A stretch of 64,000 bases of DNA. Source: Verrucomicrobiota bacterium. GTDB lineage: Bacteria > Verrucomicrobiota > Verrucomicrobiia > Limisphaerales > JANNEF01. The position numbers and the translations under genes are program-made. The notes under the pieces were generated by a model that saw only the letters and a program-made list of their open reading frames with translations, was not told where the DNA came from and searched no databases. Positions within the stretch are counted from its first letter, which is position 1; each line of letters opens with the position of its first letter. The stretch spans positions 3,893 through 67,892 of the forward strand of contig JANNEF010000313.1 in the NCBI GenBank assembly GCA_031378375.1. Reading direction: 5' to 3'. Positions 1,152 through 32,701 of the stretch are shown here, piece after piece.

Positions 1152-1260
1152 GCGGGACGGCGGAAAGTCTCACCGCCGCGCCGGCCCGGCGCAAAACAAA
1201 TTTCCCGCAGCCTTTGACAATCTGAAATCGCGGTGCGACTTCTGCGCGATTTCGCGTGCG

Positions 1261-2265: not shown

Positions 2266-2266
2266 T

Positions 2267-3595
2267 TCACGTTCCCCGCCGGGCCGCCAGCCGGCGGTAT
2301 TTGGCCTGCGCCCAGCTTTGCCATTCGATCTTCTTCAGGTTGCGCGCGGCGGGGTCCTTCCACGCGCCGGCGGCCAGCGCGAGCGCCTCCGTCTCGGTGA
2401 GTGGCATGCGACCCAGTTCCGCCAGATCGGCGGGCGGCAGGCCGCGGGCGATGATGTTCCGCCAGGCCGACTGCAACTCGGCGTGCGTGTCCACCAGCAG
2501 CGCGCCGACGAGCGCGGCGACGACTTCGCGCCGCGCGCGGCTGAGTTTGGCGTCGTAGCGGAAGGTGGTTTTCAACTCGAAGGGCGAGAACTCGATGTTG
2601 CTCACGCCGCGAAACCGCTCGTAGAAATCGGGCCGCACGGACATGCGCTCGATGGAATGCCGGCGCGGCCCGTCGGGATGGCCGCGCGGCAGGAACCACA
2701 GCTTCTGCCCGTCCTCGGAAAGCACGTAGTCCACGAAGCGCCGCGCTGTGGCGAGGTTCGGAGCGCCCTTGAGGATGGCGATGCCGTCGGGGTTCACCGC
2801 CGTGAAATCCTGCGGCAGCGCGAAGGTCATGTTCGTGCGCCCCGCCACGGCGACCTGCGTGAAGCCGTAGAAATCAATCGCAAAGGCGTAGGCCGTTTCA
2901 CCGAGGGTCACATCCTTGGCGGTGCTGCTGGAGACGCGGTCGAACTTGCGCACGTTGCCGCCGATTTGCGCGAGCACCTGCCAGGCGCGCTCCCAGCCAT
3001 AGAACTGGAGGAACGCCTCGAACATCACGTTCATCGTGCCGCTGTTGCGCGGGTCGCCCGCGCCGACCCAGTTGAAGAGTTGCGGCTGCGCCAGTTCCTC
3101 CCAGCGCTGCACCAGCGGCAGGCCGACGATGCGCTGCACGCGCGTGTTCTGCAAAATGCCGAAGCTCGACAGCGCCGCGCCGAACCAGGTGTGGTTCGGA
3201 TCATAAACTTCCACGCCGTTCGCCGTCAGCGGAATGCCTGCGAGCAACTCAGCGGGCGGGTCGTAACGCTGCGAAAGTTTCTTGTCCGCGAGCAACAGGA
3301 ACGGCTCCTGGCCGCCGCCGAAGAAGCAGTCAATGCCGATGCCATCGGGCTTGCTGGTGAACTCCGACTGCACGAAGCGCAGCGCGTCCGCCGTGCCGCC
3401 GGTGTCGCGCCACTCGACCTCCGCCGCTACGCCGAACTGCGCCAGATGCCACCGCGCGAAGCCGCCGCCGAACTCGTGCCGGATGGCGTCCACATGCGGC
3501 GTGAGGATGATGACGCGCGGCGCGGCGCAGAGCGCGAGGGGGATGAGCAGCGTGGCGAGCCACAAACTTCCGACGCGGGAAGGTGCAAACTTCAT
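2267..3595 (-). CDS. ABC transporter periplasmic substrate-binding protein (family-1 SBP fold)
   Basis: The ORF track gives 2267..4321. I trimmed it to the ATG at 3595, which yields a signal peptide ([24 protein letters not shown]). The upstream extension is Arg/Gly-rich and overlaps purH. SBP-like sequence throughout; ligand not assignable. Confidence 0.65.
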
Positions 3596-6950: not shown

Positions 6951-8072
6951 ATGCGTGACGCGAACCAATCGGAGTGCGAGCGGTTGCGCGCGGAACTGGC
7001 CGCGTTGCGCGACCAGCACGAGCAGGCCACCGCGCAAATCCAGGCGCAACAGCAGGCGCTTTTCAACAGCATGGCCGAAGGCGTTCTCGTACTCGACGCC
7101 GCCGGGCGCATCCTGCTGGTCAACCAATCGCTCGAACGGCTCTTCCGCCTCACGTCGGACGTGCGGGGCCGCACCATCCTCGAAGCCTTCCGCCTGCGCG
7201 AACTGGCCGAACTCGCGGCCCGCCTCCAACAGGAACGCATGGTCAGCGGTTGTGAACTTGAACTGCCGGGCGTGGACGAACGCTGGCTGGAGGTCAACGC
7301 CGCCGCCGTGCTCGACCGCGCCGGCGCGCATCAGGGCGCGATCCTGGTGTTCCACGATCTGACGCGCCTCAAGCAACTGGAGAACACGCGGCGGGAATTC
7401 GTCGCCAACGTCAGCCACGAACTGCGCACGCCGCTCTCGCTCATCAAAGGCTTCGTGGAAACGCTGCTCGACGGCGCGAAGGACGACCCCGCCACCGCCA
7501 CGCGCTTCCTGCAAACCATCGAGAAGCACGCCGACCGCCTGACGTATCTCATCGAGGATTTGCTGACCATCTCCCGGCTGGAGAGCGGTCGCATCGTGTT
7601 GAACCTGCAACCCGTCGAGTTGCGCGCGGAAGCCCAGCGCGTGCTCGATGATCTCCAGGCACGCGCGGCGGAGAAACACATCACGCTGGAGAACCTGCTG
7701 CCCGCCGGCCTGTCCGCCCGCGCCGATGCGGACCGGCTCGAACAGGTGTTGTTCAACCTCGTCGAGAACGCCCTCAAGTACGGCGCGCCCGCGGGCCGGG
7801 TGCAACTCGGCGCGCGTGCGCGGGCGGAGGGCGGCGTCGAGTTGTGGGTGCGCGATGACGGGCCGGGCATCCCGGAGGAGGCGCGCGAGCGCATCTTCGA
7901 GCGGTTCTATCGCGTGGACCGCGCCCGCTCGCGCGAAACCGGCGGCACGGGGCTGGGGTTGGCCATCGTCAAGCACATCGTCCAGGCGCACGGCGGCGAA
8001 GTGTGGGTGAAGAGCGAACCGGGCCACGGCGCGACCTTCTATTTCACGCTGCCACAGTCGGGGCGGGGTTGA
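6951..8072 (+). CDS. phoR: PAS-domain sensor histidine kinase, PhoR-like, apparently soluble
   Basis: H-box FVANVSHELRTPL, N/G1/G2 boxes (NLVENALKYG, DDGPGIP, GGTGLGLAIVKH), an upstream PAS-like segment and an N-terminal coiled coil. No hydrophobic TM segment seen. ATG at 6951. Confidence 0.85.
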   Translation: MRDANQSECERLRAELAALRDQHEQATAQIQAQQQALFNSMAEGVLVLDAAGRILLVNQSLERLFRLTSDVRGRTILEAFRLRELAELAARLQQERMVSGCELELPGVDERWLEVNAAAVLDRAGAHQGAILVFHDLTRLKQLENTRREFVANVSHELRTPLSLIKGFVETLLDGAKDDPATATRFLQTIEKHADRLTYLIEDLLTISRLESGRIVLNLQPVELRAEAQRVLDDLQARAAEKHITLENLLPAGLSARADADRLEQVLFNLVENALKYGAPAGRVQLGARARAEGGVELWVRDDGPGIPEEARERIFERFYRVDRARSRETGGTGLGLAIVKHIVQAHGGEVWVKSEPGHGATFYFTLPQSGRG

Positions 8073-8168: not shown

Positions 8169-8348
8169 GCCACGTTCTCCATAATGGTTTTGCGCAGGTG
8201 AAAAGGTCTTGCGCAGCGGGCAAGGGTGCGGCAGATGAACGATTCAAGTTTTCAATCTCCCAACGCCATCCAACCTCAACCGAGGTTTGGCGCAGCGCCA
8301 CCGACACGCCCGCACACTCCCGGCCTTCGCGCCCTGAACCGCCGGATG

Positions 8349-8410
8349 TTTGTAGTCCCACCTTTAGGCGGTTGGAGGGCCGTGATTCCGCCTGAAGGCG
8401 GGACTACAAA
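8349..8410. repeat. REP-like palindromic element (tttgtagtccc...gggactacaaa)
   Basis: 23-nt arms at 8349-8371 and 8388-8410 are near-complementary, with a 16-nt loop. Confidence 0.85.
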
Positions 8411-8432
8411 CGGCGAACCACCCAGCCAGACC

Positions 8433-8728
8433 GATGCTTTCGGTTCTGCCAACCCCATCCTGCCCGGACGGACTGCCACTTTCGGACCCGAAAGCCCCAT
8501 CCGGCTGAACAGGACCACCTCATTCGGTACCGAAAGCCAGTTCCGCCAGGTCAGAATGCCTCTTTCAGACCCGAAAGCCTCATTCCCCCTGGACCGGACG
8601 CCACTTTCGGACCCGAAAATGCCATTCCGCTTCACCGGAACGCCACTTACAGAACCGAAAATGCCATTCCGCCACGCCAGTCTGCCACCTTCGGCCATGA
8701 AAATCAGCACCTTACGCAAAAACCATGG
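8433..8728. repeat. degenerate ~42-bp tandem array (6-7 units), each with a TTTCGG-ac-CCGAAA-type palindromic core
   Basis: Unit anchors at 8476, 8516, 8559, 8601, 8643 and 8685, with a weaker one at 8433. Both cores and inter-core segments are homologous between units. Confidence 0.8.
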
Positions 8729-8898: not shown

Positions 8899-9696
8899 AT
8901 GCCCTACCGCCGCCTCCCCAACTCCATGCCCGCCGTGCTGCGCACCCTCAAAGCCGCGCGCGACACCTACAAAAACACCCCCGTCGCCGCCGACCGCGCC
9001 ATCAGCGCCGCGCAATTTGCCCTGCTCGACGACGCGCTCCCCGCCAGCCTGCTCAACCGCCTCATCAAAGAAGCCAGCGACGTGGACCTCGCCCAAGCCG
9101 CCCAGGCCCCGCTCACCACCGCGCTGGCCCAGACCGCCGCGCGCCTGACGATGTTCGTCTCCCACTTTCATCAAGTGCTCGACCTGGGCATCTTGCGCGG
9201 CACGTTTGCCGCCGGGGCGCGTGGCTATTATGGACGCGACATCCACGCCACCACCATCCCCGACCTCTCCGACTACGACGCCGTGCAAGAAGCCGCCGAC
9301 CGGCTCACCGCCGGCGAAACCGCGCGCGGCATCGCCGAAGGCGCCGCCTACGTGCCGATGCAACTGCCCAACGCCAGCGAAGTCGCCCTGCTCGACGCGC
9401 AATTCCACACTTTGCGCAGCCAGGCCCAGGCCGCCGAAGTGCGGACCGACCGCGAACAGGAAGAAGCCAGCGCCCTCTACCCCGATGCGCAGGCGCTGGC
9501 GGTGGACATCTGCGACACCGTGGAATTTTTCTACCGCAAAGACCCGGACGCCAGCAGCCGCCGGGTGAAAGCGATGCGTTGGGGCGTGGTGTACATCTAC
9601 GAGCCGAACGAAACACCCGACCCCGGCGCCCCCGCCGGTGCCGGCGGAGCCACCGGCGGAACGACACCTACGCCGCCCCCGCCACCAACTCCCTGA
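8899..9696 (+). CDS. hypothetical protein with Pro/Thr/Gly-rich C-terminal tail
   Basis: 265-aa ORF with normal amino-acid composition, unlike the Arg/Gly/Ala-rich overlapping antisense ORF 8893..9801. No family recognised. Confidence 0.6.
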   Translation: MPYRRLPNSMPAVLRTLKAARDTYKNTPVAADRAISAAQFALLDDALPASLLNRLIKEASDVDLAQAAQAPLTTALAQTAARLTMFVSHFHQVLDLGILRGTFAAGARGYYGRDIHATTIPDLSDYDAVQEAADRLTAGETARGIAEGAAYVPMQLPNASEVALLDAQFHTLRSQAQAAEVRTDREQEEASALYPDAQALAVDICDTVEFFYRKDPDASSRRVKAMRWGVVYIYEPNETPDPGAPAGAGGATGGTTPTPPPPPTP

Positions 9697-9825
9697 ACCA
9701 ACGCACGCACTGATATAAATATGAACTTGAAAATGAAAACCACGGATGACGCGGATGGCACGGATGGGAAAGGCGTGGAATTGCGCAAGCCCCGTCCGCA
9801 CCGCCGCGAGGTCTTGGACTGCGGT

Positions 9826-9922
9826 GGCAAGTCCGACGCGACACCGCTTTGGAATCGTGCGACGCTTCTCGAAATCTCCGACACCTCAGCCCGTGCGAAA
9901 GCGCCGTCGCGTCCGACTTGCC
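9826..9922. repeat. REP-like palindromic element (ggcaagtccgacgcgac...gtcgcgtccgacttgcc)
   Basis: ~27-nt arms at 9826-9852 and 9896-9922 are near-complementary. Intergenic, upstream of the SBBP gene. Confidence 0.8.
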
Positions 9923-10017
9923 GGCGCACTCCACGACGCTGCCGCGACCTCCATGCCCCTGCTTTCCCTACTGCTGTATTACTTACATTGAAGACGATAC
10001 GATCTTTGACGGCGTCA

Positions 10018-12129
10018 ATGTTCATGCTTATTGTCGTGTCTTGCAGACTGATGGCATCTGCCCAGGCCGCCCCACCGGTTATTGTCGCACAACCTGGTTT
10101 TCAATTCAGTTGGGTTGGCTCGAATGTTACGTTTTCGGTCGCTGCCACCGGTTCAACACCCCTCTACTACCAGTGGTTCTTCAACGGGTCGGCACTGGCC
10201 TTGGCGACAAACGACACGCTGCCATTGAACAACCTCGCAACGAACAACGCGGGCAACTATTCAGTAACAATCAGCAATTCTGCCGGGTCGGTAACCAGCG
10301 ATAGCGCCGGCTTGCTGGTGCTGACGTTTTCCATCTCACAGCCCGATAGCTACAGAACATCGCAGGATACTCCCCTCTTGATTTTAGCCGCCAACCTGCT
10401 CACCAACGACACTCTTGCGTCGGCCATCCTTCCCCCTGATTTTCCTTTCCAGGTGCAATTGAGCGCATCCGTCACCGGTGTCAGCCCTGTCAGCGCGCAA
10501 GGAGGGACCGTGTCGCTGGCAAAGGATCAACTTTGGGTTGCTCACCACGGCGGTCAATTCTACAATTACAGTACGGCTTTGGCAGCGGATGGTGCCGGTA
10601 ATGTGTATGTCACTGGCATTGTAAGTACTGAATATACCCAAGACTCCTCCACCATCAAATACTCTAGCAACGGAACGCCGATCTGGACCAATCGCTACAA
10701 AGGCCCGGGTGATTTTTATATTTCCACGGCACTGGCCCTTGATGGGCTTGGCAATGTCTATGTCACCGGGTATTCACAGGGCGTGAATCCGTATCGACCA
10801 AGCAACCCCAAGCACGATTATGCAACATTAAAGTATGCAAACGATGGAACACCTATTTGGACAAACCGCTATAACGGTCCGGCTCAACAAGCACATGATA
10901 ATGCCATGGCGTTGGCGGTCGATAACTTGGGTAATGTTTATGTTACGGGGTATTCCGCAGGGACAGGCGTTTCCAATAATTACGACTATGCGACCATCAA
11001 GTATTCCAGTGATGGAAATGAGCTTTGGGTCAGCCGCTACGAAGGGCTGGGTGGCACAGATGACTATGCTCACTCGCTTGTGGTAGGTGGGTCGGGCAGT
11101 GTTTATGTCAATGGTATCTCCGGCGGTCATTTGACGACGTTGAAGTACGCAGGTGACGGAACCCCCATCTGGACCAACCGTTACGAGAGACCGACGAGCC
11201 AGGGCGATTCTAACGCGAGGCTGGCCCTCGACGGCGCGGATAATCTGTATGTTGCCTGTTCTTCAGCCGGCCTCGGTACTGGCTACGACTACGTGACGCT
11301 GAAGTACTCCAGTGACGGAACAGCACTCTGGACTAATCGCTACAACAGCCCGGACAGCGCGGACGATATCAACCGGGCGTTAATTGTGGACCATGCAGGA
11401 AGCGTCTATGTTACCGGATATTCGTTCGGATCAGCAGGCTTGCTTGCAAGCGCGACGGTGAAGTATGCTAGTGACGGAACGCCTCTTTGGAATAATTTTT
11501 TTGGTGCAATGGACTCCAGCGAGGCGCTGGCCGTGGACAAACAGGGCGATCTTTATGTGGGTGGATCCAGACCCGGCCCTGGGGGTGGGAAGGATTACGT
11601 GGTGGTGAAATTCGCCAGCAATGGAGTCAGTCTGTGGGAGGATGACTACAACGGCCCTGGCGATTTACACGACAGCCTTTCCGCGATTGCGGTGGACGAC
11701 ACCGGCAACGTCTATGTAACTGGAACCAGTCAATCCCCAGGTGAAAGTGATTATGCTACCGTGAAGTTCTCTCCGAACGCTCAGATTACCTATACTCCCC
11801 CAATGGGTTTCGAAGGTACGGACACATTCACGTACACAATTGCCGAATTGTTTGGGATTGTGCCGCCTGCGATTGGCGTAGTGACCGTAAATGTAGTTTC
11901 TCCATTTAGATTCAATATCTTCCCAAGCAGCTTTCGATTTACGACCAATGGCCTTTGGTTGCAACTTGATGGAACGGACGCCGAGCATACGGTGGTAGTC
12001 TATAGCTCCGAGAACTTGATGACGTGGAGACCGATGCTTACGAATCTTCCAATGACTGGAACGTTGCAATTTCTAGATTCATCCGCTACCAATACCAGCC
12101 AACGCTTTTACCGTGCCGTGTTGCAATAA
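10018..12129 (+). CDS. secreted Ig-like + SBBP beta-propeller repeat protein with C-terminal FYR-ending module
   Basis: Signal peptide ...MFMLIVVSCRLMASAQA. One I-set-like Ig domain (YYQWFFNGS...AGNYSVTISN). About 8 repeats of the SBBP type (GNVYVTGYS...DYATLKYSSDGTPIWTNRY). Ends ...QRFYRAVLQ. The ORF opens at 9721, but the first 100 codons cover REP DNA. A TTG at 9988 (MKTIRSLTAS...) is an alternative start. Confidence 0.8.
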   Translation: MFMLIVVSCRLMASAQAAPPVIVAQPGFQFSWVGSNVTFSVAATGSTPLYYQWFFNGSALALATNDTLPLNNLATNNAGNYSVTISNSAGSVTSDSAGLLVLTFSISQPDSYRTSQDTPLLILAANLLTNDTLASAILPPDFPFQVQLSASVTGVSPVSAQGGTVSLAKDQLWVAHHGGQFYNYSTALAADGAGNVYVTGIVSTEYTQDSSTIKYSSNGTPIWTNRYKGPGDFYISTALALDGLGNVYVTGYSQGVNPYRPSNPKHDYATLKYANDGTPIWTNRYNGPAQQAHDNAMALAVDNLGNVYVTGYSAGTGVSNNYDYATIKYSSDGNELWVSRYEGLGGTDDYAHSLVVGGSGSVYVNGISGGHLTTLKYAGDGTPIWTNRYERPTSQGDSNARLALDGADNLYVACSSAGLGTGYDYVTLKYSSDGTALWTNRYNSPDSADDINRALIVDHAGSVYVTGYSFGSAGLLASATVKYASDGTPLWNNFFGAMDSSEALAVDKQGDLYVGGSRPGPGGGKDYVVVKFASNGVSLWEDDYNGPGDLHDSLSAIAVDDTGNVYVTGTSQSPGESDYATVKFSPNAQITYTPPMGFEGTDTFTYTIAELFGIVPPAIGVVTVNVVSPFRFNIFPSSFRFTTNGLWLQLDGTDAEHTVVVYSSENLMTWRPMLTNLPMTGTLQFLDSSATNTSQRFYRAVLQ

Positions 12130-12555
12130 GGCACCTGCGTGCCTGCGAGCGAAGATGACGACAAGGGTGCCCCCGCGGTCCCCCGTGCCCATCTATCACG
12201 TGCAACGCCGTGCCGCCTTCGGCCCCGGGCGCGTGGCGGACCCGCCCGGACCCTTCGGCGACACGAACACGCTCGTCCCCTTCCCCGATACGAGCGCGAC
12301 GAACGCGCTGAATTTCTACCGCGTGCGCATGGGGGGCTATGACTACGGCGGGTGGAAGCCAACACTAACGAACTGTTCACCCTCGAAACCGCCACCAGCC
12401 TGAGCGTTCCCATCCCCTGGTCGCCGCTCCTGACCACCAACGTCTCCACCATGCCCTTCGACTACGTGGACTTCGACGTGAAGCTCTCCGGGAAGCCGCA
12501 GAAGTTCTACCGCGTCCGCAGCCGCAGGCGGAAGTTGATCGGTGGGGAGAGTTGA
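12130..12555 (+). pseudogene. out-of-frame remnants of two adhesin C-terminal (FYR-ending) modules
   Basis: Frame 2: ...VPFPDTSATNALNFYRVR (ends ~12328). Frame 1: FTLETATSLSVPIPWSPLLTT...KPQKFYRVRS (12352-12520). No plausible N-terminal parts. GC rises abruptly relative to the SBBP gene. Confidence 0.5.
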
Positions 12556-12570
12556 TGGTTGATAGCCCGA

Positions 12571-13110
12571 ATGGGCCGTGATGCGGCAGGCACGGCGTCG
12601 GGCAACGGCGCGTCCGCGCGTCCGGTGATGAGCGCCGATGGGCGCACGGTGTTGTTCCACAGTTTCGCCAGCGACCTGGTGGCGGGCGATTACAACGACT
12701 CGCGCGACGTCTTTGTGCTGCGCCTCGGCGGCGGGGACAGTGACAGCGATGGTCTGGATGATGACTGGGAGGTGGCTTACTTCGGCAACCTGGCCCGCGA
12801 CGGAACCGGCGACTTCGACAGTGACGGCGAAATGGATTCGCAGGAATTCCTCGCCGGCACCGACCCCACGAACAGCGGATCGATCCTGCGCGTGCTGACG
12901 GTCACTGCGCCGGGCAGCGGCAGCACAACCGTCCTCTGGAGCGCGGTGCCGGGGCGGAGTTATCGCGTGCAGTTCAAAGATGACCTGGGCGCGGCGGATT
13001 GGAGCGAGTTGGCCGGGACCGTCATCGCCAGCGGCACGACGGCCGGGAAGGCGGATGTCACCGCCAGCGGGCAGGTCCGGCGGTTTTACCGGGTGCTCCT
13101 GATTCCGTGA
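12571..13110 (+). CDS. truncated-looking surface protein fragment (acidic Asp-rich repeats plus FYR-ending module)
   Basis: Begins mid-motif (GNGASARPVMSADGRTVLFHSFASDL, normally internal to large beta-propeller proteins). Then DSDSDGLDDDWE...DFDSDGEMD acidic repeats. Ends RRFYRVLLIP. No signal peptide. Same frame as the preceding remnant, separated by one TGA. Confidence 0.5.
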   Translation: MGRDAAGTASGNGASARPVMSADGRTVLFHSFASDLVAGDYNDSRDVFVLRLGGGDSDSDGLDDDWEVAYFGNLARDGTGDFDSDGEMDSQEFLAGTDPTNSGSILRVLTVTAPGSGSTTVLWSAVPGRSYRVQFKDDLGAADWSELAGTVIASGTTAGKADVTASGQVRRFYRVLLIP

Positions 13111-13307
13111 AAGAGGAGGGCAGGGACGGGGTGGTTCAACCGAATACTTCCGAAGGCATGGGAGGACGGGTCCGCCTGCAGCCGTGTTCCCGCTTCACGC
13201 GCGCGAATTTATTCTGGTCCGTGAAAATAGATTTGCCCGTAACACAGATTTCACTTGCCAGTTTCGCCGGCTCACAGCATGGTTCTCACAGATCCGGAAT
13301 TTACGTT

Positions 13308-16304
13308 ATGCAAACTCGATTTCTGTTGGCGACTGTTCTTCTTGGCGCGTTGGGTCAATCTTCGCTGCTCGCGGTGGATCCGCCCCCGGCACCCCTCGTC
13401 ACAACCATCACCGTGAGCAACACCCAAAGGAAAGTGTCGTGGACGCCCTATCCGCACGCGCAACAGTATAATCTGTTGAGCGCGACGAATGTGGCCGGGC
13501 CTTACGGACCGGCGTTGCCGGGCGCCAACTCCGGCTACTCGTGGACGGGAACCAATTCGCGCCCGCGTGAATATTACCGGTTGCAGACCGTGCCGGTGGA
13601 CAGCAACAAGCTGGTGACGGCGCAAATGCTGAACCGCATGGCGTACGGTCCGACGCCGGACGAACTGGAACGCGTGCTGGCGATGGGGCCGGACGCCTAC
13701 ATCGCCGAGCAACTGGCGCCGGAGAACCTGCCGGAGCCGGGCGACAGCGTGTTCGCCTCGGTGGTCACGAATGCGAATCCTTTTGCACCGGTGTTTACGC
13801 CGACGAACGGTTGGGTGTTTGTGACGAACATCGGCACCTTGTCCAGCAACCGGCTTTACATGTACCTGCTGGCCGCCGGAGAAGGTTACATTGACGACGT
13901 GCGGCTGGTGGCGGGCACGGAGGCCGGCGTGGGGCCAAATTTCCTGGTGAACGGCGATTTCGAGTTGCCGCTCTCCAACGGATGGGCTGTGGCGGCCAAC
14001 CACATCGCTTCGGAAGTAACCAACAACCCTGCCTGCTCGGGCACGAACAGCCTGCACATGCGGGCCAATGCCGCCGGCTCGACGCTCAGTTCGTCCATCT
14101 CTCAATTCTTCCCCATCGCCATCAGCAACGGCGCACCCGCCGAACTGACCAACGGCCAGGTATGCACATTGAGCTACAGGTACTTGCCCGCCAGCAATTA
14201 CGCGAGCGTGACGCTCCGGCTTTCCGGCAACGGAGTATCAAGCACGGGCGGGCCGCTGGCCCCGCCGAAGCCGGCGACGTGGGTTTATTTCACGATGACC
14301 GGTCCAGGCACGACGTCTGGATCCTCCCCGACACCCACGATTTATCTTTACCTGAGCCAAGCGGGCATCCGAGAGGGATGGGTGGATGACATGAAACTCG
14401 TCGCGGGCACCGTGCCGGAGGCGGGAGCGAACCTGCTTGTAAACGGTAGTTTTGAGCAGCCGCTGACCACTGGCTGGACGGTTTCGTCGAACCTGTCAGG
14501 CTCCGAAATCACGACGAACATCTCGCGCTCAGGCGTCAGCAGTTTGCACCTGGTTTCCACCAGCGCCGGGAGCACGCTGGAAAGTTCCATCTACCAGACC
14601 AATCTGCCATTGACGGTCAACTCCATTTACACACTGAGTTTCTGGTACCTGTTGACCCCCGAAGGAGCGTTGCTCGACTCGGATGATTTCACCGCCCGGC
14701 TGGGCGGCAGCGGCATCAACCGCGTTAGCACGGCACCAATTGTAAACTTGGAAACCCGTGATGGCAGCCTTTCGGACTTGCGCGGATGGTTTTGCCGCAA
14801 TGCGGTGGAATCCAAACGACAGCTCCTGGAGGTCTTGTCCCAGTTCCTGGAAAACCATTTTGTCACCCAGTATTCGAAGCTCCAGGAATACATGGCCAAC
14901 AACAACAACAACACGCCGCGAGCCGGGATCCTGGCGGCGGACTTGGAATACCGCGAGATGAAGAAGTGGCGGCAGAAGCTGCTCGACCCGCTCTGCACGT
15001 TCCGGGATTTGTCGCTCATCAGCGCCGAAAGCCTGGCCATGATCATCTACCTCGACACGGTTGGCAGCAAGGGTAACGGCAGCAACATTGCCAACGAAAA
15101 CTACGCGCGTGAGTTACTCGAACTGTTTTGCAACGGCGTGGACAACGGCTACGATCAACAGGACATCATCCAGTTGTCCCGCTGTTGGACCGGCTGGTCG
15201 GGGCAGATTGTGGACGAGGCGAACATCAACAATCCCTTCGCACCGAAGACGACCCTGCCGATTGTGCCCGGTTCGACGGTCAACTCCAATCTGGCAGGTG
15301 TCTGGACCTTCAACTACAAGCAGGCCGACCATTACACCGGCGCCAAAGTCCTCTTTCCCGCCACGAACCACGTCGTGCCGATGCGCTTTGCGACCGCCTC
15401 GCCCCTGGCCGGGCAGACCTATCAACTAAATATCCCCGCCCGCACGGGCACCAACGGCATTCAGGACGGCTATCAGGTCATTGATTACCTGGCAGACCTC
15501 CCGTTCACGCAGGAATACATCAGCGTGAAGTTGTGCCGGCTGTTCGTGCATGACGACTTCGAGCACAATGTGTACGACTACAACAGCCCGAATCTCTCGG
15601 ATGAAGGCAAGTTGATCAAGCAGTGCATGTTGACCTGGAACGCGGGCAGTCCCAAAGGCCAGATTCGGCAGGTGCTCAAGACCATCTTCGATTCAGAACT
15701 CTTTCGCATGCATGCCGGGTCGCTGCAAAAGATCAAGACGCCATTTGAGTTTGTGGCGAGTTCCATCCGCTCCATGCGCGCAGTCAAGGCCGACGGCACC
15801 TACACTGCAACCACCTCCGGTGGCACCAGTTCATTCCAGGATCCAATGAACCGCATGGGGACCATGTTGCTTTTTGATCGCGACGCGCCCGATGGTTACC
15901 CCGAAACCGCGCCGTTTTGGATTAATGCCGGCAGCCTGGCCGAGCGCTTGCGCTACGTGCAGTCGCTGTTGCATTCCAGCAGCGGTCGCCCCTCCGACGC
16001 CGGCAGCAGCACGACCGACCCGGTCGCGCTCTTGCAGCGCAAGATCACCGATTCGGCCCAGTGGCGGAATGCAGGCGCGGTCGCAGACTTCTTCCTGGGC
16101 ATCCTCTATCCCGCCGAAGGCGCGGCCAACTTGAACCTCTACCGTCAGTCAGCAATGAACTTCCTCAACACGGCGGATGACGGCGTCACAGCATCGCTAT
16201 TCAGCGGCCTGACGGTCAGCGCCACCGCTGGAAGCACTTATGACACGCGCGTGCGCGGCATGGTGGCCATGCTGATGACTTTCCAACGCTTCCAGGAGCA
16301 ATAA
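13308..16304 (+). CDS. DUF1800 family protein with ~490-aa N-terminal extension (FN3-like module + two CBM4/9-like domains)
   Basis: Sec signal MQTRFLLATVLLGALGQSSLLA. Two LVNG(D/S)FE...GW...S(L/S)H(M/L) jelly-roll-like repeats. DUF1800 core motifs ENHFVTQYSK and NENYARELLELFCNGVDNGYDQQDI. Start trimmed from 12999 to the ATG at 13308. Confidence 0.85.
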   Translation: MQTRFLLATVLLGALGQSSLLAVDPPPAPLVTTITVSNTQRKVSWTPYPHAQQYNLLSATNVAGPYGPALPGANSGYSWTGTNSRPREYYRLQTVPVDSNKLVTAQMLNRMAYGPTPDELERVLAMGPDAYIAEQLAPENLPEPGDSVFASVVTNANPFAPVFTPTNGWVFVTNIGTLSSNRLYMYLLAAGEGYIDDVRLVAGTEAGVGPNFLVNGDFELPLSNGWAVAANHIASEVTNNPACSGTNSLHMRANAAGSTLSSSISQFFPIAISNGAPAELTNGQVCTLSYRYLPASNYASVTLRLSGNGVSSTGGPLAPPKPATWVYFTMTGPGTTSGSSPTPTIYLYLSQAGIREGWVDDMKLVAGTVPEAGANLLVNGSFEQPLTTGWTVSSNLSGSEITTNISRSGVSSLHLVSTSAGSTLESSIYQTNLPLTVNSIYTLSFWYLLTPEGALLDSDDFTARLGGSGINRVSTAPIVNLETRDGSLSDLRGWFCRNAVESKRQLLEVLSQFLENHFVTQYSKLQEYMANNNNNTPRAGILAADLEYREMKKWRQKLLDPLCTFRDLSLISAESLAMIIYLDTVGSKGNGSNIANENYARELLELFCNGVDNGYDQQDIIQLSRCWTGWSGQIVDEANINNPFAPKTTLPIVPGSTVNSNLAGVWTFNYKQADHYTGAKVLFPATNHVVPMRFATASPLAGQTYQLNIPARTGTNGIQDGYQVIDYLADLPFTQEYISVKLCRLFVHDDFEHNVYDYNSPNLSDEGKLIKQCMLTWNAGSPKGQIRQVLKTIFDSELFRMHAGSLQKIKTPFEFVASSIRSMRAVKADGTYTATTSGGTSSFQDPMNRMGTMLLFDRDAPDGYPETAPFWINAGSLAERLRYVQSLLHSSSGRPSDAGSSTTDPVALLQRKITDSAQWRNAGAVADFFLGILYPAEGAANLNLYRQSAMNFLNTADDGVTASLFSGLTVSATAGSTYDTRVRGMVAMLMTFQRFQEQ

Positions 16305-16310
16305 AAAAAT

Positions 16311-18002
16311 ATGCAACACATCAATCTCATCACACGGCGCGGTTTTTTGGACCGCAGCATGAAAATTGGGCTGGGCGTCACCCTGTCCACGATGGTGGAC
16401 GTGCCCTTCGTCCTCAAGCGCGCGCTGGCCGAAGGCAACATCGGCCTCAATGGCAAGAAACTGCTCTTCATCTGGCTGCGGTTTGGCAACGACTCGCTAA
16501 ACTCCGTAATCCCGGTCGAGGATCCCGGTTATCTCACCATGCGCCCGGTCGCGACGGGTGGATCGCCTGCGAACATCGGCATTCCCAAGGATCCCGGCAC
16601 CACCTACACGGACCGTGGGGCTTGTGACTTCCCGGTGGCCGGCACGGGGCCAACATTCGGCTACGCCAATGCCATCCGATTGGGCAACGGCTACGCGGGC
16701 TTGCATCCCTCGCTGAAGTTCCTCGCGCCCGTTTATAACGCCGGCGACCTCTCCATCATCCATCGCGTTGGCTATGCGAACCAGTCGCGCTCCCATTTCG
16801 ATTCCCAAATTTACTGGGAGAACGGCAATCCGCGAAACAACGTCTCCAAGGACGGCATTCTTTATCGGACGATCTACGAAGCCATTCAGGCCTCGCCCAC
16901 CGTGGCCAGTCGTGCGCTGACGGGAGTTTCCATTCAAACCACGCTGCCGTTGCTGCTGCGCGGCAAAGACGCGGCCATGACCAATCTCTCCGATGTCACT
17001 CGTTACGATTTGTTGAACGTTCCCAATTCGCTGAACACGAATCTGGTGACCAAGGCGGACATGGCGTTGACGGGTGCCAATGCGTATCCGTTCCCGGAGA
17101 AGGCGCAGCGCGAACTGCTTCAGGGGCAATATCAAAACCTGATGAACACGCTGCCCTTGTTCAAGGATATTGCGGCGGATCTCGCCACCCCGGTGCTTGA
17201 TGATGAAGCCACCGATGGGGATTATCCTTACAACCTCTTCCCGACCTCCAATAATACCAACGGCGGCTACGTGCGCGGAGGCGGTGCCCCTCCGGAAGCC
17301 GCCAAGTATGTCGTGCCCACCGACTCCTATTCTTTCTTCACCAAGCTCAAGGCGGCGGCGCTTGTGTTGAACAAGACCGAGGCCACCATCGCCGGTACCG
17401 AATACGGCGGGTTCGACACCCATTCCGCCCAGGGAGGAGTGACTGGTGCCCATTCCGATCTTAACCGACGCCTTGGCTGGTCGCTCTACGCGCTGCGGAA
17501 GTATTTCATGGCCCACTCAGACCAAGTGACGTGGGACAATCTGGTGGTGGTGACGCTCTCGGAATTCGGCCGCACCACGCGCGTCAACTCGGACTTCGGC
17601 ACCGACCACGGCGAAGCAGGCGTAATGTGGGTTGCTGGCGGCGCGGTCAAAGGGTTTGTCCCTGGCGCCGGTGCCAACCCGCCTGTTCGCTCCGGCGTTA
17701 TTGGCTGCCATGGCACGGCTGAACCTACGCGCGATCCCATTCCGTGGATACCGGGCACTGGGTCGAGTTCGTCCATGCTTGCCGTCGAAGGATCTTATCT
17801 CAAGCGAACGGCGGATTACAGATCGGTCATGGGCGAAATCATCCGGGAGCACCTTGGCGCGACCCAGGCACAATTGGATCGGATCATTCCCGGCTACGCG
17901 GATGAGGCGAATCACCATCTAAAGAACGGCGGCACAGTGGTGCCTCCAATCGAGAGAACCAACTACAACACGCAGATCCGGGGCGAACTGGACGTCGTCT
18001 AA
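16311..18002 (+). CDS. DUF1501 (sulfatase/alkaline-phosphatase-fold) protein with Tat signal
   Basis: Twin-arginine motif TRRGFL. DUF1501 C-terminal motifs GGFDTHS, LSEFGRT, FGTDHGEAG. 6 nt downstream of its DUF1800 partner. Confidence 0.9.
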   Translation: MQHINLITRRGFLDRSMKIGLGVTLSTMVDVPFVLKRALAEGNIGLNGKKLLFIWLRFGNDSLNSVIPVEDPGYLTMRPVATGGSPANIGIPKDPGTTYTDRGACDFPVAGTGPTFGYANAIRLGNGYAGLHPSLKFLAPVYNAGDLSIIHRVGYANQSRSHFDSQIYWENGNPRNNVSKDGILYRTIYEAIQASPTVASRALTGVSIQTTLPLLLRGKDAAMTNLSDVTRYDLLNVPNSLNTNLVTKADMALTGANAYPFPEKAQRELLQGQYQNLMNTLPLFKDIAADLATPVLDDEATDGDYPYNLFPTSNNTNGGYVRGGGAPPEAAKYVVPTDSYSFFTKLKAAALVLNKTEATIAGTEYGGFDTHSAQGGVTGAHSDLNRRLGWSLYALRKYFMAHSDQVTWDNLVVVTLSEFGRTTRVNSDFGTDHGEAGVMWVAGGAVKGFVPGAGANPPVRSGVIGCHGTAEPTRDPIPWIPGTGSSSSMLAVEGSYLKRTADYRSVMGEIIREHLGATQAQLDRIIPGYADEANHHLKNGGTVVPPIERTNYNTQIRGELDVV

Positions 18003-18030
18003 GCATCAGCCCAACGTTGAAACAGGGCTT

Positions 18031-18852
18031 GTGAAAGTGCGGCGAGTTGTACCGGTTTGCGCGGCGATTTTTTCGGCAGCAACATGTCTGTTTGTTCCCC
18101 AAGCGTGGGCGGAGGTGATGACATTCAACCCCGTGGCCGATACGACCCTGATTGAATTCAGGCCGGATCGAAACAACGGCGGCGAGGCGTGGTTTATCGC
18201 GGGCACCACGCAAAACTTCGAGCGTAATCGCGCTCTCCTACGATTCGACGTCGCTGCCGGTCTGCCGGCCCAAGCCGTGGTTCTCAACGTCTTCCTGTCC
18301 CTTGATGTCCTCCGCCAGCCCGCCGACGGATTCGCGCCGAATATCTTCGGCCTGCACCGGGTGTTGCAACCGTGGGGTGAGGGTGACAAGTACGCCATCG
18401 ACAACCGGGGCGGTCAAGGCGCGCCCGCGACCGCCGGCGAAGCGACTTGGAGTCACCGCTTCCTTGGGGGTGCCGCGTGGGCTGCTCCGGGCGGCTTGCC
18501 CGGCGTGGATTTCTTCATCGAGCCGGGCAGCACCGCATTCGTCGAAGGCGTCGGCGGGTCCCCCTACCTTTTCGGATCCACCGCCGACACGGTTGCAGAT
18601 GTGGAATTCTGGCGCGCTCATCCGGAGTCCAACTTTGGCTGGATGCTGCTGGCTCAGGCTGAAGACAGCAATTTCACCGCCCGCCAGTTCGGCTCCCGCA
18701 ACGGCGGATTCCCGCCGCTGCTCACGGTGGAGTTCGAAGTGGTGCCGGAACCGGGGTCGCTGGCGTTGTGGGGTCTGGGTTTGGCCGGTGCCAGTTGGCT
18801 CGCACGCCGCCGCCGCCGCAATGTCCCGGCGGACCCTTCCGAGCTTTCCTAG
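18031..18852 (+). CDS. PEP-CTERM-anchored secreted protein with DNRLRE-like domain
   Basis: Signal peptide ...FVPQAWA. N-terminal PVADTTL...RNRALLRFDV...L block resembles the DNRLRE domain (from memory). C-terminal VPEPGSLALWGLGLAGASWLARRRRR is a PEP-CTERM sorting signal. Confidence 0.8.
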   Translation: MKVRRVVPVCAAIFSAATCLFVPQAWAEVMTFNPVADTTLIEFRPDRNNGGEAWFIAGTTQNFERNRALLRFDVAAGLPAQAVVLNVFLSLDVLRQPADGFAPNIFGLHRVLQPWGEGDKYAIDNRGGQGAPATAGEATWSHRFLGGAAWAAPGGLPGVDFFIEPGSTAFVEGVGGSPYLFGSTADTVADVEFWRAHPESNFGWMLLAQAEDSNFTARQFGSRNGGFPPLLTVEFEVVPEPGSLALWGLGLAGASWLARRRRRNVPADPSELS

Positions 18853-18858
18853 CCGCGT

Positions 18859-19653
18859 ATGAAAAAACCTTGGCTTTTTCAACACGCCATCCTGTTGGTG
18901 GCGTTGATGGGATCGCCAGGGGCGAACGCGGAGGAATTCAGCCACACCTTTACGCCCATTGCCGACACGAGCCTCATTCAAATCGAACCGGACCGCAACC
19001 ACGGAGGCGCGCCGTTTTTCAATGCCGGCACCACGCGCACGGGCTGGCGCAATCGCGCGCTGATCCGTTTCGACCTCACCGAGATCCTTCCCGCCGGCGC
19101 GATCATCACCTCGGCCGATCTGGTGCTGGAACCGGTGCGACGCCCCATCATCGGCGCGGTATCGTCTTCGTTCGCGCTGCACCGCGTGCTGCGCGCCTGG
19201 GCCGAGGGTGACAAGATTTTCGAGGGAACCCTGGACGAGCCGATCAGCCCCGGCCTGGGGCTGCCCGCCTCGCCGAACGAGGCGACATGGAACGATCGTT
19301 TTGCTTTCAACGGCGGCTGGAGCGCGCCGGGCGGGATGGCGGGGGTTGATTTTTCCGGTCTGATCAGTGCGACGGCGGGGAGCGATGGATCGCCCGTGGT
19401 TTTTTCCTCCACGCCCGAGCTGGTGGCCGACTTGCAACACTGGGCAAATCAGCCTGCCGCCAACTTCGGCTGGCTGCTCATGAGTCAGTCGGAGGAGGTC
19501 TGGGGCACAGCCCGAGGCCTTGCTTCGCGTGAAAGCGAGTTTCCGCCGCAACTGGTGGTTACCTTCACCGTCGTGCCGGAGCCTGGTTCACTGGTGCTCT
19601 GGTGCCTGGGATTAGGAGTGGCGGCGGTTTGGTCGCGGCGCAAATCCAGATAG
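18859..19653 (+). CDS. PEP-CTERM-anchored secreted protein with DNRLRE-like domain (paralogue)
   Basis: Collinear with the previous gene (PIADTSLIQIEPDRNHGG...RNRALIRFDL...HRVLRAWAEGDK...). C-terminal VPEPGSLVLWCLGLGVAAVWSRRKSR. Confidence 0.8.
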   Translation: MKKPWLFQHAILLVALMGSPGANAEEFSHTFTPIADTSLIQIEPDRNHGGAPFFNAGTTRTGWRNRALIRFDLTEILPAGAIITSADLVLEPVRRPIIGAVSSSFALHRVLRAWAEGDKIFEGTLDEPISPGLGLPASPNEATWNDRFAFNGGWSAPGGMAGVDFSGLISATAGSDGSPVVFSSTPELVADLQHWANQPAANFGWLLMSQSEEVWGTARGLASRESEFPPQLVVTFTVVPEPGSLVLWCLGLGVAAVWSRRKSR

Positions 19654-19777
19654 GCGCCGGATTCGTGTGAATTGGTTCGATTGTTCCGCCCACCGCGAAG
19701 CAAAGTTGAGTCGGTGACTCGCGGTTGCGATGGCCGGAATGGTTGCAATATTGTGCCCCTGAATATGGAAGTATTTC

Positions 19778-19806
19778 TTGCAAGTTTGCGGGCGAGTTCC
19801 TAAATT
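19778..19806 (+). promoter_or_regulatory. possible sigma70-type promoter (TTGCAA-N17-TAAATT)
   Basis: TTGCAA at 19778-19783, a 17-nt spacer, then TAAATT at 19801-19806. Lies 14 nt upstream of the ATG at 19820, implying a very short leader. Confidence 0.35.
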
Positions 19807-19819
19807 GACGTAACAGCTT

Positions 19820-22414
19820 ATGAAAATTTGTCGTGTCTTCGGATGGTTGTCGTCTTTGCTTCTCTGCGCGGTTGCTGCGCCCCGCCTCTCCGCCGCAGAG
19901 GCCACGCCCCAGCCACCAGTCTTCACCGGCGGAGTCGTGACCAACGGCCAGCGGGTGTTTAGTTGGACGCCCTATCCCGCCGCCGACCAATACCGGATTC
20001 TCACGACTTCAAACCTGCTGGCCCCATTCATTGAGGATTTGGCGGGCGTGTTGTCCGGTAACACTTGGATCCAAAACTCGACGGCTCCGGTGGGATTTCA
20101 CCGGCTGCAGGTCACGCCGCTTTCCTCCAACGCCCTTTTTGCCGCGACGCTGCTCAACCGGATCACGTACGGGCCGTCGCCGGATTCCGTCGAGCGCATC
20201 GCCACCATCGGGCCGCAACGGTTTCTGGAGGAGCAATTGGCTTGGGAGCAAATCGCGGAGACGATTGACACGGACCCACCCATCACGAATGCGCCCATAA
20301 TCGTGCTGCCACCACCACCGCCGCCGCCGCTGACGAACTGGATACGCGTCGCGGTTACCGGCACCTCCTCTGGTCTCAATTTTGGAATGTATCTCAGCGG
20401 TGGATCGGGGCGGGTCTATGTTGACGACGTGAGGTTGGTTTACGGCACGAACGCGGACGTGGGTTCAAACCTCCTCGCGAATGCGGATTTTGAAGACCCG
20501 GAGTTGACGAACGGCTGGATTCGCGGAAGCAGCATCACCACCGGCACGATGATCACGAACAGCCCGACTGTGGACGGCCTCGCCGCCTCCGGCACCAATT
20601 GTGTGCTGCTGGTCGGCAACAACAATTCGACGCTCTCCGCCGGGTTGTATCAGCCTTTCACCAACGCGAACCCGCCAACGAGCCAGCGGTTTACATTGAG
20701 TTTCTCCTACCTGCCCGTGCGCCAGACTGTCAGCAACGTCTACCTCATCGTACGCACGTCCGGCACCGCTGCCACCTCGACCGTGCCGTTGCCCAACCCT
20801 CCGCCCACGCCGCCCACGCCGCCCACGCCGCCCACGCCGCCGCCGGCCGTTTCCCCCGCGTATGAGAAGCTGACGAACACGCTGGCGCAGATCGAAGACC
20901 TGCGCTCCTGGCACGTTCTCCACGCCGTCCGCAGCCAGCGCCAGCTTTACGAAATCCTCGTGCAATTCTTCGACAACCACTTCTGCACTCAGTATTCCAA
21001 AACGAAGGAATGGTTCGACAACGAGAAGGAGCAGTACGTGACCAACGAAACCGTCCGCGCGCGGCTGGCCACCGAGATGGATTGGCGCGAGCACGCCAAG
21101 TGGCGCGCGGCCCTGATGAACACCAACTGCAATTTTTACGATCTGCTCAAGATCAGCATTGAGAGTCCGGCGATGATCATCTACCTCGACACGGTGCTGA
21201 ACAAGAAGTCCGCTGCCAACGAGAACTACGGGCGCGAAATCCTCGAGCTCCACACCTTCGGCGCCGACAACGGTTACGTGCAGCAGGACATCGTGGATCT
21301 GGCCAAGGTCTGGACCGGCTGGTCGGTGGACAAAAAGGCTCCCGCCGATGCGAACAACCCCTTCGCCCCAGCCGTCCTCGACCGCACCAACGACGTCGGC
21401 GTGTGGACGCTGAACTTCGTCACCAACGATCACAGCTACGCCACCAAGCGGATGTTCACCAACGTGGTGGTTGCCCCGCGCTTCGGCCCGCCATACGGCG
21501 GCCAGCCCTACTCGCTCATCCTCTCCAACTACACCGGCACCAACGGGCTGGCCGAAGGCTACGCGGTCATAGATCATCTGGCCAAGTCGCCATACACCGC
21601 CGAGTTCCTGAGCGTGAAACTCTGCCGACTCTTCGTCCACGAGCACTTCGAAATCGACACCTATGACTACACCGCTCCGAATCCCTCGCTGGAAGTGCAA
21701 CTGGTCAAAGCGTGCATCACCGCGTGGGACACTCCGGCCGCCGACGGACGGCGCGGCAACATCCGTTCCATTCTCAACGTGATTCTCAACTCCGATCTCT
21801 TCCGCGGCCATGCGGCCTCGGCGCAGAAGGTCAAGACCCCGCTCGAACTGGCTGTGAGCGCCGTCCGTGCCCTGCGTTTGAACAGCACGGACATCAACGG
21901 CTGGGTCAGCAGCACGGGGGACACCGATGGCTACGGCATCGCTTACAGCAGCGGCAGTTCCAGCCCGCTCGTGCGCATGGGCAACATGAGCCTGTTCAAC
22001 AAGGCCGAGCCGGACGGCTACTCTGAATTCGGCCGCCTCTGGCTTAACACGGCCAACCTGTGCGAGCGCATGCGCTTCGTGCAGCACCTGCTGATGCCCA
22101 CGACCAGCAGCACCAAGTCTTCCGATTATGGAAGCGGCGGCACAAAGAACACCTCCAATCCGGCGGCGTTGGTCCGGGCGAAACTCCCCGCCGCCAGTTG
22201 GAACAACGCCGGCGCGGTCGCGGATTATTTCCTCGGAGTCCTTTACCCGGGAGAAGGCCGCGCCAACCTCGACCTGGACCGGCAGGCCGCCATCAATTTC
22301 CTGAACACCGACGACGCAGGCAACACCTCCACCTTCATTTTGGCGAGCCACGACACCCGGCTGCGCGGCATGGTGGCGATGCTGATGTGTTTTCCCCGCT
22401 TCCAGGAACAATAA
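19820..22414 (+). CDS. DUF1800 family protein with N-terminal FN3-like + CBM-like extension (paralogue)
   Basis: Signal MKICRVFGWLSSLLLCAVAAPRLSA. VYVDDVRLVYGTNADVGSNLLANADFE CBM-like domain. (PTP)n linker. DUF1800 core FFDNHFCTQYSK and NENYGREILELHTFGADNGYVQQDI. Confidence 0.85.
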   Translation: MKICRVFGWLSSLLLCAVAAPRLSAAEATPQPPVFTGGVVTNGQRVFSWTPYPAADQYRILTTSNLLAPFIEDLAGVLSGNTWIQNSTAPVGFHRLQVTPLSSNALFAATLLNRITYGPSPDSVERIATIGPQRFLEEQLAWEQIAETIDTDPPITNAPIIVLPPPPPPPLTNWIRVAVTGTSSGLNFGMYLSGGSGRVYVDDVRLVYGTNADVGSNLLANADFEDPELTNGWIRGSSITTGTMITNSPTVDGLAASGTNCVLLVGNNNSTLSAGLYQPFTNANPPTSQRFTLSFSYLPVRQTVSNVYLIVRTSGTAATSTVPLPNPPPTPPTPPTPPTPPPAVSPAYEKLTNTLAQIEDLRSWHVLHAVRSQRQLYEILVQFFDNHFCTQYSKTKEWFDNEKEQYVTNETVRARLATEMDWREHAKWRAALMNTNCNFYDLLKISIESPAMIIYLDTVLNKKSAANENYGREILELHTFGADNGYVQQDIVDLAKVWTGWSVDKKAPADANNPFAPAVLDRTNDVGVWTLNFVTNDHSYATKRMFTNVVVAPRFGPPYGGQPYSLILSNYTGTNGLAEGYAVIDHLAKSPYTAEFLSVKLCRLFVHEHFEIDTYDYTAPNPSLEVQLVKACITAWDTPAADGRRGNIRSILNVILNSDLFRGHAASAQKVKTPLELAVSAVRALRLNSTDINGWVSSTGDTDGYGIAYSSGSSSPLVRMGNMSLFNKAEPDGYSEFGRLWLNTANLCERMRFVQHLLMPTTSSTKSSDYGSGGTKNTSNPAALVRAKLPAASWNNAGAVADYFLGVLYPGEGRANLDLDRQAAINFLNTDDAGNTSTFILASHDTRLRGMVAMLMCFPRFQEQ

Positions 22415-22433
22415 AACCCAAACGATTACTGTT

Positions 22434-32699: not shown

Positions 32700-32701
32700 G
32701 G

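Follow-up and report, generated by a model that had tools for sequence, protein, structure and literature searches.

The silent pilS cassettes of Neisseria are tandem, promoterless, 5'-truncated copies that retain the 3' part of a surface-protein gene; they are paralogues of the expressed pilE, with conserved blocks that drive gene conversion. In Rhs systems, the orphans keep a conserved core stretch that is nearly identical to the main gene (522 bp at 95% in Salmonella LT2) and end in a variable toxin domain, each being followed by an immunity gene (Koskiniemi et al. 2014, PMC3967940). Here we consider a locus within a 64,000-nucleotide (nt) stretch of Verrucomicrobiota DNA (contig JANNEF010000313.1), called the window in the following. 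On its + strand, a head-to-tail run of four protein modules that end in the tripeptide FYR extends from 11932 to 13110. Only module 1 is hosted by an intact gene, that of an SBBP beta-propeller protein (10018-12129). In our judgement the region behind this gene, 12130-13110, is probably a pile of three non-functional, 5'-truncated remnants of different surface-protein genes, at a spot of gene turnover. The parts of the locus are as follows.

10018..12129, + strand: SBBP beta-propeller surface-protein gene, 703 aa, intact (Pfam SBBP, E 3e-22)
12130..12182, no strand assigned: spacer of junction 1, 53 nt with 72% GC, directly after the TAA stop
12183..12340, + strand: fragment 2, decayed C-terminal module of a protein of choice-of-anchor-Q/beta-helix type
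12348..12527, + strand: fragment 3, C-terminal module of an LVIVD-repeat protein, without its first strand
12534 (approx.)..13110, + strand: fragment 4, last PD40 blade, TSP3-like calcium-binding repeats and FYR module 4 (12880-13107)

The original prediction, made without database searches, had described four FYR-ending modules within 1 kb, and this is borne out both by three-frame translation of 12100-13140 and by a hidden Markov model (HMM) of the module. The frames are also as noted there, the tails of modules 3 and 4 sharing one frame with the TGA at 12553-12555 between them. The HMM finds six modules in the window, five of which lie inside 1.7 kb.

Module 1, + strand: HMM match 11932-12126; tail ..QRFYRAVLQ followed by the stop at 12129, in the frame of 12100
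Module 2, + strand: HMM match 12179-12331; tail ..NALNFYRVR at 12311-12328, in the frame of 12101
Module 3, + strand: HMM match 12349-12519; tail ..KFYRVRS at 12505-12522, in the SBBP frame, reading through to TGA 12553-12555
Module 4, + strand: HMM match 12880-13107; tail ..RRFYRVLLIP followed by a stop, in an open reading frame (ORF) at 12559-13110, frame as for the tail of module 3
Fifth module, + strand: HMM match 13398-13595, near the N-terminus of a DUF1800 protein
Sixth module: HMM match 45671-45895, at the C-terminus of a 2262-aa protein (39110-45898) that also has Calx-beta-like, DUF11 and TSP3 parts

The seeds of this HMM include window sequences, which makes its detections in the window partly circular. 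A profile-profile comparison with hhalign was therefore made that used no window sequences. In it, modules of LVIVD type (n=21, from other loci) and of PD40 type (n=111, from other samples) align in register with P = 1.6e-4, the Trp and the FYRV of one type falling on those of the other. The modules are thus divergent members of one family, and the similarity extends beyond the FYR tripeptide, one of the points on which the prediction had staked itself. Among the window modules the pairwise identity is 24-31%, and a narrow HMM built from the modules of the ORF4 family (the ORF of fragment 4, see below) did not detect fragments 2 and 3. The clustering is real and non-random: FYR occurs 15 times over the six frames of the window, 10 of these on the + strand, and four occurrences within 1 kb correspond to a scan-corrected Poisson p of ~1.4e-3. 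In addition, the GC content at third codon positions (GC3) is high in the own frame of each of fragments 2, 3 and 4 (0.89, 0.92 and 0.83, respectively). Such coding-type values are confined to these frames, and the minus-strand ORFs do not have the pattern.

The four modules come from four unrelated architectures (SBBP, choice-of-anchor Q, LVIVD, and PD40 with TSP3), as found by aligning the fragments with their relatives in other loci and proteins (labelled L and P, respectively). Fragment 2 is 81% identical to P0124, in which a choice_anch_Q domain (NF041518) stands immediately ahead of the module, and its DNA is ~88% identical to positions 1274-1480 of L007. It carries two compensating indels, a Trp to Val change at the conserved Trp of the family and a lost stop, the TAG of the relative being TAT in the window (12338-12340). 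It is the most decayed of the three fragments, and the public record has an 82-aa ORF annotated over it, at 12155-12403.

At the protein level, fragment 3 matches P0122-P0127 with 69-76% identity; its DNA is ~80% identical to that of L004. The genes of its parent type are LVIVD genes (PF08309, E 3e-75). In 25 further loci retrieved by an exact degenerate DNA pattern for module 3, the LVIVD proteins end ..KPQKFYRVRQP before the stop. About 20 of ~27 independent loci with this tail are intact or contig-limited LVIVD genes, while about a quarter of the module-3 loci are truncated, in every case at the 5' side. The lesions of fragment 3 are a 1-nt deletion at 12520 and a change of the stop from TAG to CAG at 12525-12527. 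As these removed the stop, the frame is now open to the TGA at 12553-12555. We also considered the last 80 nt of module 3 as an RNA element or att site and rejected the idea, since the DNA identity is paralleled by complete amino-acid identity. By manual count, synonymous differences are not clearly rarer in these 80 nt (~2 of 22 identical codons, against 2 of 9 upstream).

Fragment 4 stems from a PD40-repeat protein type of ~1070 aa, the PD40 assignment being confirmed by Pfam. Its ORF, called ORF4, is annotated at 12571-13110 (179 aa), while the frame is open over 12559-13110. ORF4 has 223 homologues, the best of them 60-65% identical, all of which are C-termini of PD40-repeat proteins with bacterial TSP3 repeats. 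Full-length relatives (~1070 aa) are found at L002 5344-8543 and L003 5345-8528. Read against P0003 and P0008, the similarity to the PD40 family reaches to ~12534, 5' of the ATG of ORF4 and in another frame, so that an in-frame TGA or a frameshift lies less than 40 nt from the 5' end of the fragment. Against a leave-one-out profile of the family ORF4 ranks at the 97th percentile, which indicates that the 540-nt body is undecayed; as the family was retrieved with ORF4 as the query, this profile has ORF4 at its centre. Possible reasons for the good state of ORF4 are that it is the youngest of the remnants or that some constraint acts on it.

Homology to intact genes, truncation and lesions thus coincide in fragments 2 and 3, as in ordinary pseudogenes, while fragment 4 has the truncation and the 5' stop or frameshift together with an undecayed body. 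Two further statements of the prediction stand: the three downstream pieces have no credible start and are orphan, 5'-truncated 3' ends, and the last of them begins in the middle of a domain, namely inside the last PD40 blade. The alignment to related genes that it had called for has, together with a reading of the frames, yielded the DNA breakpoints of the fragments.

The state of ORF4 raises the question of whether 12571-13110 encodes a functional stand-alone small protein, consisting of a blade remnant, the TSP3 part and the putatively FN3-like module, a scenario that would be compatible with fragments 2 and 3 being remnants. It has 179 open codons, keeps every near-invariant residue of the family, reaches the above-mentioned percentile (with the caveat of a profile centred on the query) and is annotated as a protein in the public record. 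An AlphaFold2 model based on a 120-sequence alignment (predicted local distance difference test score, pLDDT, of 87) shows three blade strands and, in the TSP3 part, two short helices, and residues 113-182 form a sandwich of six strands. However, ORF4 is without a signal peptide, no Shine-Dalgarno-like motif was seen before its ATG, and it begins inside a beta-propeller blade that is unable to fold alone. Furthermore, the family homology extends 5' of the ATG across a stop or frameshift, and comparable short ORFs in L002, L003, L035 and L036 are frameshift products of full-length genes. We therefore regard a functional ORF4 protein as unlikely.

As to these relatives, the full-length PD40-TSP3-FYR genes of L002, L003, L035 and L036 are all frameshifted 5-70 codons before the last PD40 blade (at ~7835-7850, ~7985, 550-3169 and ~600-660, respectively), and among the best 120 of the 223 ORF4 homologues none is longer than 321 aa. 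The frameshifts may be assembly indels (three of the relatives come from one study), contig breaks in repeats, or something recurrent.

The intact gene in front of the fragments differs from its surroundings. Its product consists, in order, of a signal peptide, an immunoglobulin (Ig)-like domain, SBBP repeats, Big_9 and FYR module 1, and an identical 703-aa protein is called in the NCBI record (P0166). With a GC3 of 0.57, the gene is below its neighbours (about 0.8) and below most other genes of the window (0.73-0.87). The GC content rises from 0.47 (12077-12129) to 0.72 (12130-12182), with the step exactly at the SBBP stop codon (12129/12130). On the other side, the composition profile places the beginning of the low-GC block near 9960, just right of lineage-wide repeat elements. 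The low GC3 and the step at the stop suggest that the SBBP gene is not an old resident; it looks like a gene-sized foreign block of ~2.2 kb and is probably an acquired, atypical occupant. In the 53 nt that follow (12130-12182), the alignment score with L007 is not above that of shuffled sequences, and the homology of fragment 2 cannot be extended to the SBBP stop. No terminator-like site was found on the + strand over 9600-13500, in contrast to an intact SBBP-FYR relative, which has a classic terminator 30 nt past its stop.

The distances between the units are short. At junction 1, 53 nt separate the SBBP stop from the first supported base of fragment 2 (12183). At junction 2, fragment 3 starts (12348) 7 nt on from the former stop of fragment 2 (12338-12340), and at junction 3, the similarity to the PD40 family begins (12534) 6 nt on from the former stop of fragment 3 (12525-12527). 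All five junctions examined, from three samples, lie 0-7 nt after a stop codon, the fifth being placed by composition.

Similar arrangements are found in other loci. In L021, the TAG stop of an intact RCC1-repeat gene, which has an FYR module of its own, is directly followed (0 nt) by the start of a fragment with an LVIVD module. In L007, the stop of a PIN toxin gene is followed ~3 nt later by a choice-of-anchor-Q fragment with its module, then by a repeat element and a further orphan tail, ..QRFYRARLVP before the stop; another tail lies upstream of a toxin-antitoxin pair. In L004 (5880-6225), an intact LVIVD gene has a second copy of its last ~90 nt, 95% identical, 165 nt further downstream, with four short GC-rich hairpins in between. 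In L005, L019 and L024, LVIVD genes truncated at the 5' side follow toxin-antitoxin genes, transposase debris or repeats.

Several other origins were considered and rejected. For a diversity-generating retroelement with a variable and a template repeat, a near-identical 3' copy would be expected, and identity among the window modules is just 24-31%; the 5 differences between the two 96-nt copies of L004 are not adenine-specific, and there is no reverse transcriptase among the called genes. Terminator hairpins as deletion hot spots do not stand out either, the 60 nt past the stop of 22 intact or fragmentary LVIVD genes having a median z of 0.2 against shuffles. Microhomology at junction 2 was suggested by GTGCGGGTGG, common to the tail of module 2 and the first strand of module 3; the window retains the whole tail of module 2, which means that the junction is not in the GTGCGGGTGG repeat. 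A decayed multi-module protein was likewise discarded, since the nearest relatives of each fragment stop at the same point and the fragments are of different sub-types. An Rfam scan of the window and of L004, L005 and L007 gave three tRNAs only.

The main alternative is in-situ decay of a native four-gene array. Here, SBBP, beta-helix, LVIVD and PD40 genes would have stood in tandem, and three deletions would each have run from just past the upstream stop into the next gene, selection sparing the upstream gene and removing the start and signal peptide of the dead one. Intact tandem arrays of FYR genes are indeed common in the relatives (an Ig/SBBP-like gene lies 30 nt after an LVIVD gene in L014, L019, L023 and L028, and L013, L016 and L029 have two modules each), the operon spacers in the window are 6-28 nt, and LVIVD genes range from 2 to ~14 repeats, which indicates frequent internal deletions. 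On the other hand, the SBBP GC3 of 0.57 and the composition step at its stop do not fit, the 0-7 nt gaps are shorter than the native spacers of 30 nt behind intact LVIVD genes, at junctions 2 and 3 it is the stop of a now dead unit that was spared, and such a gene order is present in no relative. The decaying tandem gene family that the prediction had offered as its second option is closer to the evidence than its first, while it leaves the atypical SBBP composition unaccounted for. We consider in-situ decay possible, although clearly improbable.

In the reading that we favour, a pile of remnants from different genes, the locus would be a turnover spot for genes of the FYR-module class. Each event would have abutted the end of a then-intact gene to the interior of the next one, deleting the 5' part of the latter. 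The SBBP gene would have arrived as the ~2.2-kb foreign block, likely in the latest step. The remnants would now probably be untranslated spacer on a transcript that continues into the DUF1800-DUF1501 genes. The replaced units are nearly whole genes and not 3' ends.

Several points weigh against this reading. The foreign origin of the SBBP gene is read from composition alone (z ~ -2.6 within the window), and its best homologues are at most 47% identical, so that no donor can be named. The fragments start 0-7 nt past the preceding, in part former, stop, for which this reading offers no reason; selection sparing the upstream gene accounts for one side only, and two of the upstream units are themselves dead. 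A simple leftward series predicts that the rightmost fragment is the oldest, yet ORF4 is undecayed over 540 nt, and the decay gradient runs the wrong way, fragment 2 being the most damaged. No close relative of the locus that shows an earlier state was found with the DUF1800 protein as query in GTDB genomes and JGI metagenomes.

The last point of this kind concerns the assembly. Two Logan contigs of the same run (SRR20217213) are identical to the window over 11080-12454 and 12461-20830. They break at 12455-12460, inside module 3, which means that the link there is given by the deposited assembly alone. An assembler could in principle have stitched different loci or strains together via conserved module sequence, and the break is indeed located where the most conserved ~80 nt of module 3 begin. 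Nevertheless, every junction is inside a Logan contig identical to the window, junctions 1 and 2 in one and junction 3 in the other. A k-mer mis-join would give a hybrid module rather than head-to-tail units, and similar layouts occur in unrelated samples and assemblies. Even with a mis-join at 12455-12460, orphan fragments would still be present in both halves. A chimeric assembly is thus a highly improbable origin of the layout.

The 0-7 nt junctions, seen in five places and three samples, together with the undecayed ORF4, are the reason to consider also a directed process that recognises gene ends and sets the 5'-truncated 3' ends of other FYR genes right behind stop codons. Candidates may be site- or structure-specific recombination, copy-choice, or a reverse-transcription step. 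We regard such a process as very unlikely. If it did operate, module tails would accumulate as arrays in the genomes of Verrucomicrobiota, where they might serve as a stock for exchanging the terminal module.

The module itself, ~70 aa in length and ending ..RFYRV.., is common. When 1.84 billion representatives were searched with a profile built from the six window modules, 2,589 of them matched at E <= 1e-3, each standing for a cluster at 50% identity. No model of Pfam or NCBIfam matches any FYR module. In 245 kb of related loci, ~35 of 40 HMM matches lie 0-2 residues from the stop. The hosts are SBBP, LVIVD, RCC1, PD40, choice-of-anchor Q and Calx-beta/DUF11 proteins. Many profile matches have in-frame tandem modules, from two to more than 20, and N-terminal placement also occurs. 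The 92-aa P0141 is an in-frame partial tandem duplication of the module-2 type, joined between ..NFYRV and QRRAAFG.., and here two YRV-coding sites inside one module appear to have recombined. The lineage (Verrucomicrobiota) attaches such a module C-terminally to many surface proteins that are otherwise unrelated.

According to the structural models, the module is predicted to be an FN3-like beta-sandwich. Its best Foldseek matches in the PDB are FN3 domains (Tencon, 4lpw, and integrin beta4), with a probability of 0.98 and a weak E of 0.036, a root-mean-square deviation of 3.4 A over 78 columns and a target TM of ~0.53; six strands are predicted in the module, against the seven of the FN3 fold. 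Like the fibronectin type III (FN3) domain (PF00041), it would thus be a small beta-sandwich, and its B-strand Trp, C-strand Y-x-V-x-Y and terminal (F/Y)YRV resemble the B, C and F strands of FN3. The profile matches also include classical FN3 arrays with ..YFYRVRA.. (P0144). Unlike FN3, the module ends right after the YRV strand, the FN3 G strand being apparently absent, and it sits mostly at the extreme C-terminus. None of the Pfam FN3 models is significant on any module.

This placement recalls the C-terminal sorting domain of the type IX secretion system (T9SS; PF18962/TIGR04183), which is likewise a small beta-rich C-terminal end of many unrelated secreted proteins. SBBP homologues of Bacteroidota and the FCB group have PF18962 in the position of the FYR module, and in a parent of fragment 2 the module directly follows a choice-of-anchor Q domain. 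In Pfam and NCBIfam searches, PF18962 and TIGR04183 did not match any module, and, unlike the T9SS domain, the FYR module also occurs in tandem arrays and at N-termini. The prediction had proposed that the conserved part, the extreme C-terminal module, could serve in sorting or anchoring, and the module is indeed a candidate for such a role. Across unrelated secreted proteins the module is placed at the extreme C-terminus, apart from the N-terminal and tandem exceptions. An anchoring or sorting signal is a reasonable interpretation of this distribution, and the exceptions weigh against a pure signal.

The surroundings of the locus contain the following features.

8899..9696, + strand: upstream ORF of 265 aa, matched by no Pfam or NCBIfam model
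9721..9960, no strand assigned: stretch of GC-rich repeat elements, with the 265-aa ORF to its left and the AT-rich 5' flank of the SBBP gene to its right; left edge of the low-GC block
13308..16304, + strand: downstream DUF1800 gene (Pfam DUF1800, E 8.5e-67)
16311-18002, + strand: DUF1501 gene, next after the DUF1800 gene

The 265-aa ORF has a distant homologue at L011 4959-5333 (tblastn, 32% identity, E 4e-8). In L011, from a Verrucomicrobiota metagenome-assembled genome, this homologue lies directly 5' of an LVIVD-FYR gene, and the ORF family may be a conserved partner of such genes. The motif ACCACGGAT(G/T)AC(G/A)CGGATGGCACGGATGGG is present upstream of the SBBP gene, at 9742-9770, and also at 1499-1560 of L007, where it takes the form of a hairpin with a module tail on either side. 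The motif is apparently a repeat element that accompanies FYR-module loci. Further upstream, a 24-nt inverted repeat of 92% complementarity (GTTTGTAGTCCCACCTTTAGGCGG / CCGCCTGAAGGCGGGACTACAAAC; 8348-8411) looks like a lineage-wide palindromic repeat. It stands just before an intergenic array of seven tandem 42-nt units (8409-8709), each with a small TTTCGG..CCGAAA hairpin.

On the downstream side, the DUF1800 product opens with a signal peptide and the FYR-like module at 13398-13595. The window has three DUF1800-DUF1501 pairs (13308-18002, 19820-24005 and, on the minus strand, 31581-34369). The first two are 42% identical paralogues, both with the FYR-like module after the signal peptide of the DUF1800 protein, and two PEP-CTERM paralogues (18031-19653) lie between them. 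At the window end, 61768-63941, two more ORFs have a low GC3 (0.63 and 0.57), as the SBBP gene does, and may form another compositionally atypical block.

These results have some consequences for annotation. If the remnants are read as above, the two hypothetical proteins of 82 and 179 aa in the public annotation of the contig are gene wreckage, as are likely many comparable short ORFs in metagenome catalogues. Pfam and NCBIfam lack the large family of FYR modules, which marks the C-termini of many unrelated beta-propeller and beta-helix surface proteins of Verrucomicrobiota. With a model of it, annotation would improve, and this phylum, whose surface-anchoring and sorting signals are poorly known, would gain a concrete candidate for one. 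If stacking next to stop codons turned out to be general, it would point to non-random replacement of FYR genes.

Finally, the locus can be compared with the systems introduced at the outset. Like orphan rhs-CT/rhsI and cdiA-CT/cdiI units, the fragments are 5'-truncated and without initiation or export signals, and they lie serially on the same strand downstream of a full-length gene. The original prediction had seen in them the products of successive 3'-end replacements of one gene, as in Rhs/CdiA loci, and this mechanism is not supported. The three source architectures are unrelated to the SBBP gene, with which the fragments have no DNA or protein homology beyond the module tail; blastn and tblastx searches of 12130-13110 against that gene gave only chance matches of at most 14 nt. 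Pfam and NCBIfam searches gave no toxin family, the C-terminal part being the conserved, putatively FN3-like module. The gaps between the units (53, 7 and <=6 nt) contain no ORF, and distances of 0-53 nt leave no room for toxin or immunity genes. The analogy thus captures the outcome, displaced start-less fragments, but fails the defining features.

The fragments retain a 3' part as the pilS copies do, and one could envisage that they form a reservoir of silent C-terminal modules recombinable onto the expressed gene, in the style of Rhs/CdiA or pilS. In favour of this are the head-to-tail order of the 5'-truncated pieces on one strand, their place right behind an expressed gene, the recurrence of such layouts in other samples and the undecayed state of ORF4. 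However, unlike the pilS copies, they are not paralogues of the gene in front of them. As the longest DNA match to the SBBP gene is the above 14 nt, there is no homology upstream of the module for recombination, which largely refutes the scenario. In addition, the source architectures are unrelated, the conserved rather than the variable part is retained, the conserved Trp and the reading frame of fragment 2 are gone, and toxin and immunity genes are missing. A silent-cassette function is therefore extremely doubtful.

A further likeness is to ordinary pseudogene remnants, with which the fragments have truncation, frameshifts, lost stops, lost conserved residues and flanking repeat elements in common, and in the related loci also flanking toxin-antitoxin genes. 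Unlike ordinary pseudogenes, the 3' ends of three different genes are stacked one way, 0-7 nt from the previous stop, and one of them is undecayed. The core of the locus is thus ordinary gene decay with a curious regularity.

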